Source: an uncultured Clostridia bacterium
GTDB lineage: Bacteria > Bacillota > Clostridia > Oscillospirales > CAG-382
Assembly: GCA_947628695.1 (NCBI GenBank)
Contig: CANRAV010000009.1
Coordinates: 8,551 to 72,550 of the forward strand
DNA length: 64,000 bases
Direction of reading: 5' to 3'
This document shows, in pieces, positions 6,814 through 31,042 of this stretch; the stretch's first letter is position 1, and every line of letters starts with the position of its first letter. The notes under the pieces are model-generated. The model saw only the letters and a list, made by a program, of their open reading frames with translations, made no database searches and was not told where the DNA came from. A program made the position numbers and the translations under genes.

Positions 6814-6982
6814 ACCAAAGCTTCGGGGCAGGGTGAAATTCCCTACTGGCGGTACAGTCCGCGAACACGCCGTGCATGGCGTGCCGACCCGGTGGAACTC
6901 CGGGACCAACGGTTACAGTCCGGATGGAAGATGGCTTTTTTTTCGCGCTTTTGCCCCGCTTTTTAAGGCGGGGCTTTTGCTT
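6814..6982 (+). promoter_or_regulatory. FMN riboswitch (RFN element) with terminator-type expression platform
   Basis: CTTCGGGGCAGGGTGAAATTCCCTACTGGCGGT...AGTCCGCGA...GACCCGGTGGAACTCCGGGACCAACGGTTACAGTCCGGATGGAAGA matches the conserved RFN core. A terminator hairpin gccccgc/gcggggc (6953-6974) with a following tttt follows. A possible promoter is TTCAAT-17-TATGCT at 6784-6812. Confidence 0.9.
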
Positions 6983-7736: not shown

Positions 7737-8585
7737 ATGCAAAGGGTCGGATATTTCAACGGCGAAATTGGCCCGCTGGATGACATGACAATACCGCTTT
7801 GCGACCGTTCGGTCTTCTTCGGCGACGCCGTGTACGACGCGGTGCTTGTGCTTGGCGGGAAGTGCTATACGCTTGACGGGCACTTAGACAGGCTTTACAA
7901 CAGCTGCCATCTTGCGCAGATTGCCTTTGACATGGGCAGAGACACCTTAAAGTCAGAGATTGAAAGGCTTATCTCTGCCGCAGACGGCGGAGCTGAGATG
8001 CTTTATATAGAGGTCACGCGCGGGGCTGCGCCGAGGAAGCACGAGTTCCCTAAAGACGCGCGGCCGAACCTTATAATGTCGGTCACTCCCCTGACGCTGC
8101 CTGACAGGGGCAAAAGGGCGACGCTTGTCAGCTTCGAGGACAGGCGCTTTGAGTACTGCAACATAAAGACGGTGAATCTGCTTCCCAACGTGTTTGCGGC
8201 GCAGAAGACGGCCGAATGCGGTGCGACGGAGGCGCTTATGCACCGGGGCGACAGGCTTACGGAGGCTGCACACAGCAGCATCTTGATGCTTTCCTCCGGC
8301 GTGCTCTTGATGCCGCCGCTTGACCGGTTTATTCTGCCGGGCATAACCCGCGCCGTGCTTACGCGCCTTGCGAAGGCGAACGGCATACCGACGGAGGAAC
8401 GCATCATTACGGTAGACGAGCTTCTTAAAGCCGACGAGATACTGCTTTGCAGCACCACAAAATGTTTGCTGCGCGTCTTCGAGGTTGACGGGGCGCCTGT
8501 GGGCGGCAAGGACGAGGCTCTCGCACAAAGGCTGCAGGATCTGCTTTACGCGGACATAGAGGCGCAGACAGGGGTGCGGCTATGA
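7737..8585 (+). CDS. dat: D-amino-acid aminotransferase (class IV PLP aminotransferase)
   Basis: 282 aa. I can align it by eye to Bacillus Dat: YIEVTRGAAPRKHEFP versus YFQITRGTTSRNHIFP, and EDRRFEYCNIKTVNLLPNVFAAQK versus [24 protein letters not shown]. Confidence 0.75.
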   Translation: MQRVGYFNGEIGPLDDMTIPLCDRSVFFGDAVYDAVLVLGGKCYTLDGHLDRLYNSCHLAQIAFDMGRDTLKSEIERLISAADGGAEMLYIEVTRGAAPRKHEFPKDARPNLIMSVTPLTLPDRGKRATLVSFEDRRFEYCNIKTVNLLPNVFAAQKTAECGATEALMHRGDRLTEAAHSSILMLSSGVLLMPPLDRFILPGITRAVLTRLAKANGIPTEERIITVDELLKADEILLCSTTKCLLRVFEVDGAPVGGKDEALAQRLQDLLYADIEAQTGVRL

Positions 8586-9583
8586 AAAACGAGTTTAAGA
8601 AGGGCCCGCTTAACAAAATAACCGACGTTGACGGCGTCAAGGTCGGCCACAGAACGGTTGACGAAGGGGATTACCACAGCGGTGTCACCGTTGTGCTGCC
8701 GGTCGAGGGGAATGTTTTTTACGACAAGCCCGTGGCTGCCTGCTTTGTGCTTAACGGCTTTGGGAAAAGCGTCGGCCTTATACAGATAGAGGAGCTGGGG
8801 ACGCTTGAGTCGCCGATAGCGCTTACTAACACGCTTAGTGTCGGCGCGGTTATGGATGCGGTGACGAAGCACGCTGTGAAGGAAAGCGCCGACGAGGGGA
8901 AATACCTGCGCTCTGTCAACACGGTAGTTTGCGAGTGCAATGACGGCGGAATCAGCGACATTTGCGCGTTCGGAATAAACGCGTCGCACGTTGAAGACGC
9001 GTTCGCGGACGTGAAGGCGGACTTTGCAGAGGGCGCAGTCGGCGCAGGCAGGGGGATGAGCTGCCACGGGCTTAAGGGCGGTATCGGCTCTGCATCCCGC
9101 GTTATAAAGCTTGACGGTGCAGAATACACCGTCGGCATCCTGCTTCTCTCCAACCACGGCGCGCTGCGTGACTTAACGGTGGACGGCGTGAACCTTGGCG
9201 CGGAGATAGCGCGCGGAGAGCGCGAAAGCGACAAGGGCTCTATTATCGTCATAATGGCAACGGACATCCCGCTTTCGTCCCGCCAGATAAAGCGCGCGCT
9301 TAAGCGCATATCGACCGGGCTTGCACGCGTCGGCAGCCGCATAGGGCACGGCAGCGGCGAGGTCTTCCTTGGGTTTTCTACCGCCAACAGGGTCAAGGCT
9401 GGCTGCGGTGACATTCAAAGCTTCCGCGCACTTTCCGAAGAAAAGATCGACCTGCTGTTCCGTGCGGTTTCGGAGGCAACGGAGGACGCGCTTATTAAGT
9501 CGCTTTTGCTGTCCGAACCTTGCAAAAACCGCAAGGGCAAGACCATCCACAGCCTCTCGGAGTACTTCCCTTCAGTGGAATGA
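8582..9583 (+). CDS. P1 (DmpA/S58) family aminopeptidase
   Basis: 333 aa. ITDVDGVKVGHRTVDEGDYHSGVTVVLP and IIVIMATDIPLS are typical of DmpA-like Ntn peptidases. There is a 4-nt ATGA overlap with dat. Confidence 0.75.
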   Translation: MKNEFKKGPLNKITDVDGVKVGHRTVDEGDYHSGVTVVLPVEGNVFYDKPVAACFVLNGFGKSVGLIQIEELGTLESPIALTNTLSVGAVMDAVTKHAVKESADEGKYLRSVNTVVCECNDGGISDICAFGINASHVEDAFADVKADFAEGAVGAGRGMSCHGLKGGIGSASRVIKLDGAEYTVGILLLSNHGALRDLTVDGVNLGAEIARGERESDKGSIIVIMATDIPLSSRQIKRALKRISTGLARVGSRIGHGSGEVFLGFSTANRVKAGCGDIQSFRALSEEKIDLLFRAVSEATEDALIKSLLLSEPCKNRKGKTIHSLSEYFPSVE

Positions 9584-9617
9584 TTGCTGCTTTTTGTTTT
9601 TTGTTTATTTATTTTTT

Positions 9618-9646
9618 GGCCGAGCTCGCGCTCGGCCTGTTTTTTA
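9618..9646 (+). terminator. Intrinsic terminator of the dat/P1-peptidase operon
   Basis: ggccgagc-tcgc-gctcggcc (9618-9637) followed by tgtttttt. Confidence 0.75.
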
Positions 9647-9680
9647 TGAAGGGACTCGGTCCCTTCATGGCTGTTTTTGA
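9646..9680 (+). terminator. Second tandem terminator-like hairpin
   Basis: atgaagggac-tcg-gtcccttcat is a perfect 10-bp stem (9646-9668). It is followed by ggctgttttt. Confidence 0.55.
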
Positions 9681-9713
9681 GTTAGGTTTATAGAAAAACA
9701 TAGCTTTTTTGAC

Positions 9714-9734
9714 CCAAAGGGCACAGCCCTTTGG
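9714..9734. other. Perfect 9-bp stem-loop (ccaaagggc-aca-gccctttgg)
   Basis: Read directly from the sequence. There is no U-tract downstream on either strand. Confidence 0.6.
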
Positions 9735-9830
9735 AATCCCGAGCTGGCAACGCAGGTTACGTCTTAGCGATGTAAAGGCTGGTCACACGTATGAAGACTT
9801 TCAGCTATTGTACCGCGCCGAACTTTCCAC

Positions 9831-9930
9831 AAACGCGAGCGAAGCGAGCATAACGGCGGAGCCGCACTAAACCGCGAGCAGAGCGAGAGGCGGCGGAGCC
9901 GTTCACAAAAACGCGAGCGGAGCGAGCATA
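9831..9930. repeat. Degenerate tandem repeat (~37-39 bp unit, 2.6 copies) built on the cgcgagc(r)(r)agcgag...ggcggagccg motif
   Basis: aaacgcgagcgaagcgagcataacggcggagccgcac / taaaccgcgagcagagcgagaggcggcggagccgttcac / aaaaacgcgagcggagcgagcata. Confidence 0.6.
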
Positions 9931-9942
9931 TAATCAAATAAC

Positions 9943-9975
9943 GAATTTTCCGCGGGCATGTACCGCGGAAAATTC
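9943..9975. other. Perfect 13-bp stem-loop (gaattttccgcgg-gcatgta-ccgcggaaaattc)
   Basis: Read directly from the sequence. Confidence 0.65.
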
Positions 9976-9994
9976 TCCTTGGATTCCCGCGAGT

Positions 9995-10028
9995 GCCTAC
10001 CCCTCACCCCCACGGGGTGGGGGTAGGC
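9995..10028. other. G/C-rich stem-loop (gcctacccc-t-cacccc-cac-ggggtg-ggggtaggc)
   Basis: 15 base pairs with one bulged T. Read directly from the sequence. Confidence 0.6.
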
Positions 10029-10034
10029 GCGAGA

Positions 10035-10277
10035 CGCGAGTGAACGGGAATCTATAATAACCGCGGATAATTGAGAAAGCCGCGCTTTCTCAATTATCAA
10101 CCTATTAGATATATCGGGGGTACCCCCGAAAATCGTCAGATTTTTGGGGGAAAACCGCAGTCGCGAGTGAACGGGAATCTATAATAACCGAAGGCTCTTG
10201 AGAAAGCCATGCTTTCTCAAGAGCCAACCTTTTAGCCTATTCGGGGTCCCCGAAAAATCGTCAGATTTTTTGGGGAT
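10035..10277 (+). repeat. Two tandem copies (period 127 bp) of a ~115-nt structured module: a 29-nt identical leader containing TATAAT, a 14-bp hairpin, a G/C palindrome and an A/T-G/C hairpin. Candidate small-RNA or repeat element.
   Basis: cgcgagtgaacgggaatctataataaccg is identical at 10035-10063 and 10162-10190. The hairpins at 10066-10098 and 10193-10225 differ at 4 base pairs, all compensated. cgggggtacccccg versus cggggtccccg. ccccgaaaa(a)tcgtcagattttt(t)gggg occurs in both copies. Confidence 0.6.
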
Positions 10278-10321
10278 TTCTTATGGGGTCCACGTCACGA
10301 ACGTATGTGAGTGATGGGGAA

Positions 10322-10714
10322 TTACTTCTTCTTTTCTTCCTTAGCATCCTTCTTGCCGTAGATCTTGTCTGCGTCAACAAGGGTGATTATCGCCATCTCC
10401 GCGCCGTCACCGCGACGGGGGCCAAGCTTAAGAACGCGGGTATAACCGCCGTTCCTCTCGGCATAAGCGGGGGATATCTCGTTGAAAAGCTTATAAACAA
10501 CGCTTTCCTTCTTAATAAACGCGAAGGCGCGTCTCTTATTTGCAAGGGTGTTCTCCTTGCCCAGTGTTATCATCTTCTCGGCAAGGGCGCTTACTTCCTT
10601 CGCCCTTGTCAAAGTTGTTTCTATCTTGCCGTTTTCAAGCAGAAAGGTCACCATACCCTTAAGCATAGCCATTCTGTGGTCGGTCTTCCTGCCAAGCTTT
10701 CTTGTTCCGGGCAT
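10322..10714 (-). CDS. rplQ: 50S ribosomal protein L17
   Basis: [21 protein letters not shown]... 130 aa, after rpoA. Confidence 0.97.
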
Positions 10715-29335: not shown

Positions 29336-31042
29336 ATGAAAAAATTACTTAGTAGTATTTTTTTGACAGCTGCCATGCTCTTCGGCGTGCTTTCTGCGGC
29401 CGGAATTTCCGCATCCGCAGAGGCAGCAGGCGGAGAATGGGGCGATTTGAGCTGGAGCCTCGACAGGGACGGCGTTCTTACCGTCTCCGGTCAGGGGGAG
29501 ATGGAAGATTTGCCCGCGGACAACACCGCCTGGCTCGCCTACCGTGAGAGCATCGAATCCGTAGTCATCTGTGACGGCGTTACTTCCATCGGTGAAGATG
29601 CGTTCCAAGGCTGCGATACTCTTAAAAGCGTTGCCGTTCCCGACAGCGTCACTTCGATAGGAGACTGCGCGTTCCAAAGCTGCGCTTCTCTTGCAAGTGT
29701 AAACATTCCCGACAGCGTCACTTCGATAGGAGAAAGCGCGTTCCAAAGCTGCGATTCTCTTACAAGTGTAGCCGTTCCCCGCAGCGTTGCTTCGATTGGG
29801 TTTCAGGCGTTTTCCGGTTGCGAAAAGCTTACCGAGGTGACCGTTTCATCCCCTTCGACGGGAGAGGGGGCGTTCTTCGGCTGCCCTATTGAAAAGCTTA
29901 CAATTACCGAAGGCGTTGTTACCATTGATGATTACTCCTTCAACTGTTGTCGGTCACTCAAAAGCGCGGTAATACCGGAAAGCGTTACTTCTATAGGGAA
30001 CGGCTCGTTCGGCGAATGCTCGTCTCTGACCGACATAACCATCCCCGACAGTGTTACTTACATCGGGAGCTATGCGTTCAGCAGCTGCTCCTCCCTGAAA
30101 AGCATAACTATACCCGATGGCGTTACCTCTGTTGAAGAGTGCACTTTCGGTCGCTGCAGTTCTCTTGTTGACGTTAATCTTCCCGACAGCATTACCAACA
30201 TAGGAAAGCATGCGTTTTCAAGCTGCTCTTCTCTTAGGGAGATAAACATTCCCAAAAATGTTAATCATATCGTATCAGGGGCGTTCGGCAGCTGCGACAA
30301 TCTCAGAACAATTACCGTAAGCGAAGAAAACCCCTATTACCACAGCGAAGGCAACTGTATTATCGAAACCGCTTCTAATTCCCTGAATACCGGCTGCAGA
30401 AACAGCGTTATTCCGAGCTATGTCAATTCCATAGAGTCCGAAGCTTTTTACTCATGCACTGCCCTTAAAAGCATAGTCATACCCGAGGGCGTTACTTTTA
30501 TCGGAGAAAGTGCGTTTGATAAATGCACCTCGCTTGAAAGCATAGAGCTTCCGAAAAGCCTTGCCAATGGAACTGTCGAATTCCGTGCGTTTGCCGATTG
30601 CGACAATCTCAAGCTTGTATATTCAAAATCCCCCTATATAATTATCGACAATCCTGAAACTGTAATCGTTCCAAAAGGGGTAACTCCGTTCCCCCATATC
30701 TTAGATGAATACAGAGTGACCGGCTCAGCCGTAATAAAAGGCGATGAGGTGGACTGGTACAAGAAGACCGAAGACTGCGCAGTCCATTATTACGAAGACG
30801 AGTACGACACGACCTGCAACATCTGCGGTGAAGTGAGGGAGCTTACCGTTTTCGGCGACGCGAACGGTGACAAGGCTGTCAACAATTTAGACGCCGCGTG
30901 CATCCTGCAGCACGACTCCGGCATCATCAGCCTTGAAGCAGGTGATATGTCTGCCGCAGACGTGGACGATGACGGAAGTGTCAACAACATTGACGCGTCT
31001 CTCATCCTTCAGCTTGACGCGGGGTTAATCGCGGGGTTCTAA
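29336..31042 (+). CDS. Secreted BspA-type leucine-rich-repeat protein with a C-terminal dockerin
   Basis: Signal peptide MKKLLSSIFLTAAMLFGVLSAAGISASA. More than 12 copies of a ~23-aa unit (IPDSVTSIGxxAFxxCxSLxSV). C-terminal GDANGDKAVNNLDAACILQHDSG...ADVDDDGSVNNIDASLILQLDAG. There is a 12-nt gap after the anti-sigma gene. Confidence 0.85.
   Translation: MKKLLSSIFLTAAMLFGVLSAAGISASAEAAGGEWGDLSWSLDRDGVLTVSGQGEMEDLPADNTAWLAYRESIESVVICDGVTSIGEDAFQGCDTLKSVAVPDSVTSIGDCAFQSCASLASVNIPDSVTSIGESAFQSCDSLTSVAVPRSVASIGFQAFSGCEKLTEVTVSSPSTGEGAFFGCPIEKLTITEGVVTIDDYSFNCCRSLKSAVIPESVTSIGNGSFGECSSLTDITIPDSVTYIGSYAFSSCSSLKSITIPDGVTSVEECTFGRCSSLVDVNLPDSITNIGKHAFSSCSSLREINIPKNVNHIVSGAFGSCDNLRTITVSEENPYYHSEGNCIIETASNSLNTGCRNSVIPSYVNSIESEAFYSCTALKSIVIPEGVTFIGESAFDKCTSLESIELPKSLANGTVEFRAFADCDNLKLVYSKSPYIIIDNPETVIVPKGVTPFPHILDEYRVTGSAVIKGDEVDWYKKTEDCAVHYYEDEYDTTCNICGEVRELTVFGDANGDKAVNNLDAACILQHDSGIISLEAGDMSAADVDDDGSVNNIDASLILQLDAGLIAGF
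29637..29774 (+). repeat. Near-identical 69-bp tandem duplication inside the LRR gene (two LRR units)
   Basis: ttcccgacagcgtcacttcgataggaga..gcgcgttccaaagctgcg.ttctctt.caagtgta is repeated with period 69 (29637 and 29706). A degenerate third unit follows. Confidence 0.8.

Follow-up and report, generated by a model that had tools for sequence, protein, structure and literature searches.

What are the two adjacent, strongly folding units, each about 127 bp long, that lie beside the ribosomal protein gene rplQ in an uncultured Clostridia bacterium (Oscillospirales; CAG-382): a pair of small-RNA genes, or repeated DNA of another kind? We analysed a 64,000-nt stretch of contig CANRAV010000009.1 (assembly GCA_947628695.1, positions 8,551 to 72,550 of the forward strand), here called the window, and all positions without a locus label are those of the window. 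An earlier note, made from the sequence alone, had offered the two modules as a candidate novel small RNA or repeat element. Our results supported the repeat element but not the small-RNA gene, for which there was no promoter or terminator call and no conservation. We consider it rather probable that a local tandem duplication produced the modules, inside a cluster of extragenic hairpin repeats that is similar to repetitive extragenic palindromes (REPs) and bacterial interspersed mosaic elements (BIMEs), and that belongs to a new, CGGGG-tagged family. The anatomy of the modules could be read directly:

10035-10161, plus strand: module 1, consisting of the 29-mer (10035-10063), hairpin b1, a 16-nt linker, hairpin c1 and an 11-nt joint
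10162-10290, plus strand: module 2, consisting of the 29-mer (10162-10190), hairpin b2, a 16-nt linker, hairpin c2 and the U-rich tail ATTTCTTAT
10066-10098, no strand: hairpin b1, GATAATTGAGAAAGC-CGC-GCTTTCTCAATTATC, a perfect palindrome with -18.6 kcal/mol on either strand
10193-10225, no strand: hairpin b2, GGCTCTTGAGAAAGC-CAT-GCTTTCTCAAGAGCC, a perfect palindrome with -25.1 kcal/mol on either strand
10115-10150, plus strand: hairpin c1, with the tag CGGGGG-TA, an A4/T5 variant of the CGGGG-tagged hairpin family
10242-10275, plus strand: hairpin c2, with the tag CGGGG-T, an A5/T6 variant of the same family

What the earlier note had described at this level was recovered. Tandem Repeats Finder (TRF) returned two tandem units with a period of 127 (1.9 copies, score 336), and the identical 29-mer CGCGAGTGAACGGGAATCTATAATAACCG is present exactly twice, with 0 expected in 100 shuffles; each copy holds the TATAAT that had been pointed out (10053-10058 and 10180-10185). 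A perfect hairpin does follow each 29-mer, although with a stem of 15 bp and a loop of 3 nt instead of the 14 bp and 5 nt that had been given. The G/C palindromes and terminal hairpins are likewise in place, forming the terminal element CGGGG-y(y)-CCCCGAAAA(A)TCGTCAGATTTTT(T)GGGG, and the terminal hairpin is indeed stronger on the plus strand (-19.3 vs -14.6 and -16.5 vs -12.7 kcal/mol). Modules 1 and 2 fold far better than their shuffles (z = -5.5 and -7.1). No known RNA family was recognised in them by the earlier note, and our scan agreed: nothing credible appeared in 9584-10321 even at E<=10, and only a flavin mononucleotide (FMN) riboswitch and an S10 leader reached the gathering threshold when the window was scanned with Rfam 15.

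Hairpin c is not confined to the window. A search pattern with 24 specified bases, CCCGAAAA-N0-2-TCGTCAGA-N0-2-TTTTTGGG, matched 41 genome stretches, against well under 1 expected by our own arithmetic. The matches came from many Clostridia isolates and metagenome-assembled genomes (MAGs), two Nautiliales MAGs, three Nitrospirota MAGs, one Chloroflexi MAG and one Insolitispirillum isolate, with host backgrounds ranging from 28 to 68% GC, and two viral contigs were detected as well when the pattern was tightened (CCCC/GGGG ends, N0-1 gaps). Hairpin c2 was identical at 34/34 positions to copies in the Nautiliales MAG CAYSKX01, while c1 corresponds to a second variant found in other Clostridia (27/27 in locus L054 and 26/26 in L029; loci fetched for comparison carry L numbers). 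The consensus reads C-GGGG, 1-3 nt (y(y)), CCCC-G-A4-5, a distal stem and loop, and T5-6-GGGG; hairpin c of the window has a 12-bp stem, a 4-nt loop and a length of 34-36 nt including the tag. Its distal part is mostly TC-GTCA-GA or GTC-GTCA-GAC and quite different in one genome, and the CGGGG-N(1-3)-CCCCG palindrome is kept in nearly all variants. The hairpin sequence did not occur in a full-text literature search, and a short blastn search of the 36-nt hairpin against plasmids and phages gave nothing, possibly as a result of the low-complexity filter. Judged from these matches, c1 and c2 are members of a near-identical hairpin family that is scattered through at least five phyla and is apparently undescribed.

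Aligning homologues brought out additional covariation in the hairpin c family, a result that supports selection on pairing, as the earlier note had argued, for this hairpin but not for hairpin b, which offers only two copies and one mirrored block. Among 32 distinct variants of hairpin c, 98.7% of the cells were paired and 7 of the 12 pairs had changed on both sides, a pattern matched by 0 of 500 shuffles; with the partner shifted by one column, pairing fell to ~69%. The G after the C-run pairs with T in most variants, and owing to this G·T wobble 22 of 23 variants are more stable on the top strand than on the complement, by 3-4 kcal/mol.

Copies are numerous and clustered in some genomes. 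The fetched stretches of the Clostridia MAG JAZRZM01 and of CAYSKX01 hold more than 10 copies each, and one 165-kb contig carries copies at 24, 104, 120, 128, and 136 kb. Head-to-tail arrays with a 43-nt period were observed in L024, L048, and L052, and inverted pairs only in L023 and L042. Among the copies that lie at most 150 nt after a gene end, 9/11 are in sense orientation (based on crude calls of open reading frames, ORFs). In CAYSKX01, we also noted copies within GAGAAT(T/G) microsatellite tracts (L048:2917-3078, L052:3903-4022, L027, L055). Other settings were recorded as well. The tagged hairpin of the Insolitispirillum peregrinum isolate is enclosed in the loop of a larger hairpin, itself perfect (CAGGGGCCGGG...CCCGGCCCCTG; L031:2040-2110), and a hairpin repeat at L061:70-156 is likewise nested in the loop of a larger perfect hairpin, so that it looks as if the elements insert into, or build, palindromes. 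At L043:6250-6520, a tagged hairpin is found within an apparent duplicated and disrupted 3' half of a tRNA gene, beside intact tRNA genes.

Hairpin c also heads a longer element. In Clostridia mobile-element contexts, Subdoligranulum megaplasmids, and gut phages, it starts a 104-106-nt element (the 105-nt element, or 'Group A') that consists of hairpin c, the conserved linker GGAGGAGCAGCGGAATGA.., a variable second hairpin and ..GATATGGAGCTTGTGACGACG, with an enclosing long-range helix. Copies are found, among others, at:

L040:1722-1831
L032:2420-2529 and 2599-2707
L047:154-263
L064:3000-3109
L065:1481-1590
L016:1485-1595

In the Clostridia mobile-element contexts, products of neighbouring genes resemble ParA-type partition, relaxosome, and serine recombinase proteins, as judged by eye. 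RNAalifold predicted 30 pairs, 19 of them with compensatory changes, and no Rfam family matched even at E<=10; the element has the look of a structured RNA, or of a motif in single-stranded DNA, that has so far gone undescribed. In two IMG/VR contigs (L016:1485-1595 and L017), it is located in-frame and stop-free within a gene for a 773-aa C5 DNA methyltransferase, where the insertion adds ~35 residues that are absent from the homologues in phages NatCom_991 and NatCom_17901. By comparison of these sequences, the phage methyltransferase directly documents the insertion of c-headed elements.

A covariance model of the 105-nt element (R1) gave 100-123 bits on true members and 36.1 and 32.5 bits on c2 and c1 of the window, where it aligned to the first hairpin only, with ~70 model positions deleted. 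By this alignment, the window modules share hairpin c with the 105-nt element but are not that element. A likeness seen by eye between the window's linkers or CGCGAG units and the linkers of the 105-nt element was rejected, since local alignment did no better than with shuffles and R1 skips the domain. On L047, a Clostridiaceae isolate scaffold on which a serine recombinase is also encoded, a pemK RNA motif (RF02913, 50 bits) lies at L047:327-424, ~60 nt from the 105-nt element and on the opposite strand.

The remaining parts of the modules call for a different weighing. The four compensated changes that had been reported between the b hairpins are present, each mirrored on the opposite arm, but they are adjacent (5' arm ATAA vs GCTC, 3' arm TTAT vs GAGC) and may therefore represent one block event per arm, and not four independent events. 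Hairpins b1 and b2 are pure Watson-Crick without G·U pairs, with an identical core and a differing outer stem. It has been described that intra-strand template switching can create or maintain perfect stems in one step (PMC8794818), and two copies of hairpin b cannot separate template switching from selection on the fold. For the 29-mer, the identity of 29 columns would be improbable if the 24 differing columns were scattered singly (p=0.011) but is ordinary when the differences are taken as the 9 blocks actually seen (p=0.37). A 21-mer of the 29-mer was matched neither in a search of one genome per species nor in viral contigs; for the core of hairpin b, the viral contigs likewise gave 0 matches, and it had no relatives among the fetched loci. 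The 65-aa shadow ORF across b1 and the 29-mer gave no candidates in a protein-database search, and the whole spacer around the modules had no blastn match among phages and plasmids.

We note some looser resemblances to parts of this region. A degenerate pattern of the 29-mer had two matches in JGI metagenomes (L061 and L062). L061 shares the 20-mer CGCGAGCGAAGCGAGCATAA with window 9834-9853, nested in the loop of a 21-bp GTAGGGGCGC... hairpin; the match of L062 is looser and lies between rpsD and rpoA. A 19-mer scan showed one viral contig with two copies, 43 nt apart (L063:1625-1686), this contig being small and rich in ATTAGG and CCTGTTCC iterons. By chance, ~1 match would be expected from these patterns, and a family is not claimed on that basis. 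The 19-20-mer CGCGAGCGAAGCGAGCATA(A) (9834-9853) recurs in L061:91-116 and L063, with a number of matches near chance and weak kinship; the GCGAAGC within it is known as an unusually stable DNA mini-hairpin. Lastly, the left flank of the Nautiliales copies of hairpin c, GAGAATTGAGAAAGC, agrees with the b1 5' arm GATAATTGAGAAAGC at 14/15 positions. The estimated probability of a chance match is ~0.02-0.6, varying with the way in which the search space is counted, and we did not retain this link to hairpin b, which may be chance or common origin.

The modules lie in a spacer that is unusually rich in hairpins for this window, with the following features:

9584-10321, no strand: hairpin-rich non-coding spacer of 738 bp between the convergent S58 peptidase gene and rplQ
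8582-9583, plus strand: S58 peptidase gene (ORFs and Pfam), the last gene of a plus-strand operon
10322-10714, minus strand: rplQ (ribosomal protein L17, Pfam PF01196), the last gene of the S10-spc-alpha cluster
9618-9637 and 9644-9670, plus strand: two canonical intrinsic terminators, with a T-run after each (terminator scan, fold energies)
9831-9930, plus strand: 39-nt repeat, 2.6 copies (TRF score 126; repeat family D2)
9943-9975, no strand: perfect 13-bp hairpin with a 7-nt loop, followed on the minus strand by GTTATTTGATTATAT
9996-10027, no strand: G/C-rich hairpin CCTACCCCTCACCCCC-ACG-GGGGTGGGGGTAGG, 14 bp with one bulge and CGCGAG flanks (-27.5 kcal/mol)

The minus strand of the spacer folds with z = -9.6. 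The 64-kb window has 7 perfect stems of 10 bp or more, and 4 of these fall inside the spacer. The terminators at 9618-9670 end the peptidase operon, whose order is FMN riboswitch, energy-coupling factor (ECF) transporter S component, class IV aminotransferase, and S58 peptidase (ORFs, Pfam, Rfam), and they are separate from the repeats. Within 9834-10162 lie 7 of the window's 13 plus-strand copies of the hexamer CGCGAG, and each CGCGAG of the series that begins at 9831 precedes a different hairpin. The 39-nt repeat unit is CGCGAGCGAAGCGAGC(ATAA) followed by the mini-hairpin CGGCGGAGCCG and includes GCGAAGC/GCGGAGC. This CGCGAG-punctuated, hairpin-rich stretch runs from 9831 to 10290, and the two modules form its final two units. 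The sequence of the region is identical across independent assemblies of the same strain; these assemblies break at 9986 and 10006, and one Logan contig stops exactly at 10162, the start of the second 29-mer.

To compare the site among relatives, orthologous loci were reached via L17 (RplQ) homologues (93-95% identity) on their contigs (L006-L011). The spacer had no BLAST match in these loci except for a single 15-nt word at chance level. In all sampled relatives, the rplQ stop codon is followed within ~60 nt by a hairpin and T-run, with different genes beyond, and the terminator scan found no canonical intrinsic terminator downstream of rplQ in the window (10277-10321). Since the relatives lack the hairpin region and have an ordinary terminator, the region is, on present sequences, strain- or species-specific, and it replaces the normal rplQ terminator. 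As the genes downstream of rplQ differ from relative to relative, this site resembles a hotspot of turnover. The closest relative has the same S58 peptidase, separated from rplQ by a 568-aa gene; that this gene might be the window's own 568-aa ORF at 29336-31042 was rejected, as the two are unrelated on comparison. Two occurrences in other genomes were noted in a similar genic setting: a tagged hairpin in an apparent rpsD-rpoA spacer of a Nitrospirota MAG (L038:1950-1995) and a CGCGAG motif in an apparent rpsD-rpoA spacer of a metagenome contig (L062:1397-1422). Together with the window, these make three occurrences in or beside the alpha operon.

In our preferred explanation, a composite unit of ~127 bp (29-mer, hairpin b, linker, hairpin c) would have been duplicated in tandem on site, within a palindromic repeat cluster that fills the spacer between two convergent operons. 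The hairpin c family behaves like mobile or selfish DNA, being dispersed and multi-copy in some genomes, present in arrays and after genes, at the head of composites and in one case inside a phage gene. Kept pairing together with a wobble on one strand would be expected if the hairpin is recognised in single-stranded form, either as DNA (as REPs are by HUH/Y1 enzymes) or as RNA. It may thus be maintained and multiplied as a single-strand hairpin, of DNA in replication or transfer and of RNA when transcribed. The mirrored differences between the modules may reflect hairpin upkeep, by selection on the fold, by replacement with family members or by intra-strand template switching, and do not indicate the evolution of a specific small RNA. 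A benefit to the host would be secondary; plausibly, transcripts of the highly expressed alpha operon would be stopped or protected at their 3' end and the convergent operon would be insulated. A local role in ending or protecting transcripts is possible. Both the way in which the family moves and its role at rplQ are what we infer from these patterns.

REPs are small stem-loops of 20-40 nt with an unpaired tag of the GTAG/GTGG or CGTC type (PMC3733652, PMC6006769). They are multi-copy and clustered, lie downstream of ORFs between unidirectional or convergent genes and sometimes inside genes; the CGTC type includes families common to distant phyla that have no dedicated transposase, and RPE-4 and RPE-6 of Rickettsia are counted as CGTC REPs (PMC3733652). 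Hairpin c is comparable in that it is a tagged stem-loop of 34-36 nt, within the definition of a short palindrome, and is multi-copy in some genomes, clustered, and common to distant phyla; at the window locus the genes on either side converge, and the other copies lie mostly after gene ends. It differs in its stem of 10-13 bp, which begins with CCCC·GGGG and then has the G·T wobble in most variants. The terminal-repeat motif of TIRYT, GGGGWSAS, does not fit hairpin c, and Clostridia do not figure in the REP survey of Di Nocera et al. 2013 (PMC3733652).

Likeness to other systems is partial. Rickettsia palindromic elements can lie in-frame in coding genes, as the 105-nt element does in the phage methyltransferase, although that insertion is in a related locus and not in the window, and sequence and tag differ. 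Pneumococcal BOX elements are modular (boxA-boxB(n)-boxC) and numerous within one genome. Our modules are similar to them as an intergenic, strongly folding mosaic of short modules, one in tandem, in Firmicutes, but share no sequence similarity with them, occupy one locus where BOX has many per genome, and are built of perfect palindromes. The subterminal hairpins of the insertion sequences (IS) IS200/IS605 (PMC6006769) are also asymmetric, ~20-25 nt long and read on a single DNA strand; they too have a short guide or tag, placed 5' of the foot, and a wide phylogenetic spread; in contrast to hairpin c, they come with tnpA or tnpB, neither of which was found near the copies (in a weak search), and the left and right ends of the IS are alike whereas hairpins b and c are unrelated to each other. 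Rho-independent terminators are likewise stable stems at gene ends, but b1, c1, and most family copies have no U-tract after them, and the T-run of hairpin c is inside its stem. A CRISPR array, for which three or more direct repeats of 28-37 nt and unique spacers of similar length would be expected, was rejected, as there are only two 29-mers, 98 nt apart, with 'spacers' that are ~75% alike and not unique. CRISPR, retron, integron attC and toxin-antitoxin RNA all have the wrong repeat geometry and lack their defining parts here; no cas, reverse transcriptase, integrase or toxin genes were detected among the 7 nearest ORFs compared with Pfam, where no dedicated cas search was included.

Several observations weigh against a REP/BIME-like cluster. 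The tag is CGGGG with 1-3 nt and not GTAG/GTGG or CGTC, and c1/c2 and the 43-nt arrays are head-to-tail and not alternating. No REP-associated tyrosine transposase (RAYT, Y1) was detected near any copy in the fetched DNA, no protein family recurs within 2.5 kb of hairpin c copies, and tblastn of the fetched DNA with IS608 TnpA had no match; the first two are weak negatives, and the third is a weak test with an approximate query. Within the 64 kb scanned, no copies of hairpin c lie outside this locus, which has 2. No relatives of the 29-mer or of hairpin b turned up anywhere searched, so the repeat family extends to one of the three module parts, and no result here accounts for a 34-mer that is nearly identical in rumen Clostridia and in vent Nautiliales.

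Other explanations account for part of these data. The hairpins could have been co-opted as a barrier, with b2, b1, 9943-9975, and others on the minus strand replacing the lost rplQ terminator; they would stall RNA polymerase, shield the 3' end of the alpha-operon mRNA from exonucleases, and insulate the peptidase operon. This would be consistent with an rplQ that is without a canonical terminator where all sampled relatives have one, and with the U-rich GTTATT..ATTATA tail that follows each perfect hairpin on the minus strand, where the hairpin at 9943-9975 is the only terminator-like call on the rplQ strand. A passage of PMC3733652 describes REPs as stabilising upstream mRNA and attenuating transcription, and we counted these effects for the barrier. 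Hairpins b1 and b2 have only 2-4 T in the first 8 nt, which is too few for a U-tract, the rplQ strand carries the weaker C·A form of hairpin c, and the cross-phylum family is left unaccounted for. As the whole explanation a barrier seems to us unlikely, and as a secondary role it is compatible with the repeat cluster. We regard as a little less likely again that a recent 127-bp duplication was simply neutral, its mirrored differences having arisen by one-step template switching, with neither the fold nor the 29-mer under selection. The perfect Watson-Crick stems of hairpin b, equal on both strands and free of G·U, would be in line with this, as would the four changes forming one contiguous block per arm, the unremarkable 29-mer under the block-event null (p=0.37), the documented capacity of template switching to make perfect stems (PMC8794818), and the lack of homologues of b or the 29-mer. 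However, c1 and c2 match two different variants that exist elsewhere, in a family that covaries in many genomes, and several other perfect hairpins, unrelated to these, occur in the 450 bp around them, an argument that some process or selection favours hairpins at the site.

With regard to transcription from the modules themselves, they are probably not a pair of small-RNA genes. Under that explanation, each TATAAT would drive a plus-strand transcript of ~100 nt with hairpins b and c, antisense towards the rplQ 3' end. Yet the TATAAT is without a -35 match at a distance of 16-18 bp, lacks a TG extension and was uncalled by the promoter scan, and a canonical terminator is absent after both modules: c1 has no U-tract, and b1, b2, c1, and c2 were all uncalled on either strand by the terminator scan. 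There is no conservation in relatives and no similarity to Rfam even at E<=10, and hairpin c occurs in unrelated contexts, including inside ORFs, without an adjoining TATAAT module. On the minus strand, a weak U-rich tail, GGTTATTATAGATT, follows hairpin b, and the TATAAT is simply part of it. We consider two tandem small-RNA genes very unlikely, even though both copies have the same TATAAT, both modules are strongly folded, hairpin c is better on the plus strand, and ATTTCTTAT after c2 could act as a weak U-tract. The least likely of the explanations, to our minds close to negligible, is that TTGAGAAAGC..GCTTTCTCAA and CGGGG-N-CCCCG are double-stranded inverted repeats bound by a dimeric protein in an operator, partition or other array. 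Although the palindromes are perfect, the b core is identical in both copies while the outer stem varies, and CGGGG-N(1-3)-CCCCG is kept in nearly all variants despite being unable to form a stable hairpin, the flanks are the S58 peptidase gene and rplQ, with no regulator or partition gene nearby. The site is between gene ends and not at a promoter, no protein family recurs beside the copies, and the wobble that most variants keep is a feature of single strands. A bolder extension of the repeat cluster, which we hold to be unlikely, is that the CGGGG hairpin is the recognition head of undescribed, very small mobile elements, from 34 nt when solo to ~105-270 nt with cargo, which would be moved by a single-strand-specific enzyme or a host function, and that the 127-bp unit of the window has been caught multiplying. 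As a variant of this, the c-headed units could be transcribed, functional RNAs.

For the window, these results remove a tempting but poorly supported small-RNA call, and they illustrate that a single event can account for 'fully compensated' differences between two perfect palindromes. The hairpin repeat family was found in neither Rfam nor the literature searched, and it is without the tags that define the two known REP super-families. Should the family be mobile, the extragenic palindromes would gain a third type, and one would have to ask what moves it; should it act as RNA, hairpin c would represent a very widespread 3'-end module. Either way, the family is a cheap annotation target for MAGs, because assemblies break at hairpin repeats.

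Two further observations concern other parts of the window. The FMN riboswitch at 6816-6939 scores 101 bits and lies upstream of the ECF-type riboflavin transporter S component. A mechanical ORF start at 6876 falls inside it, and the true start is therefore further downstream; the gene caller puts it 141 nt later. The 568-aa ORF at 29336-31042 contains a tandem repeat with a 69-nt unit (29600-29796; 2.9 copies, 83% identity), and its 'DSVTSIG'-type repeats and C-terminal segment suggest a repeat-containing surface protein.

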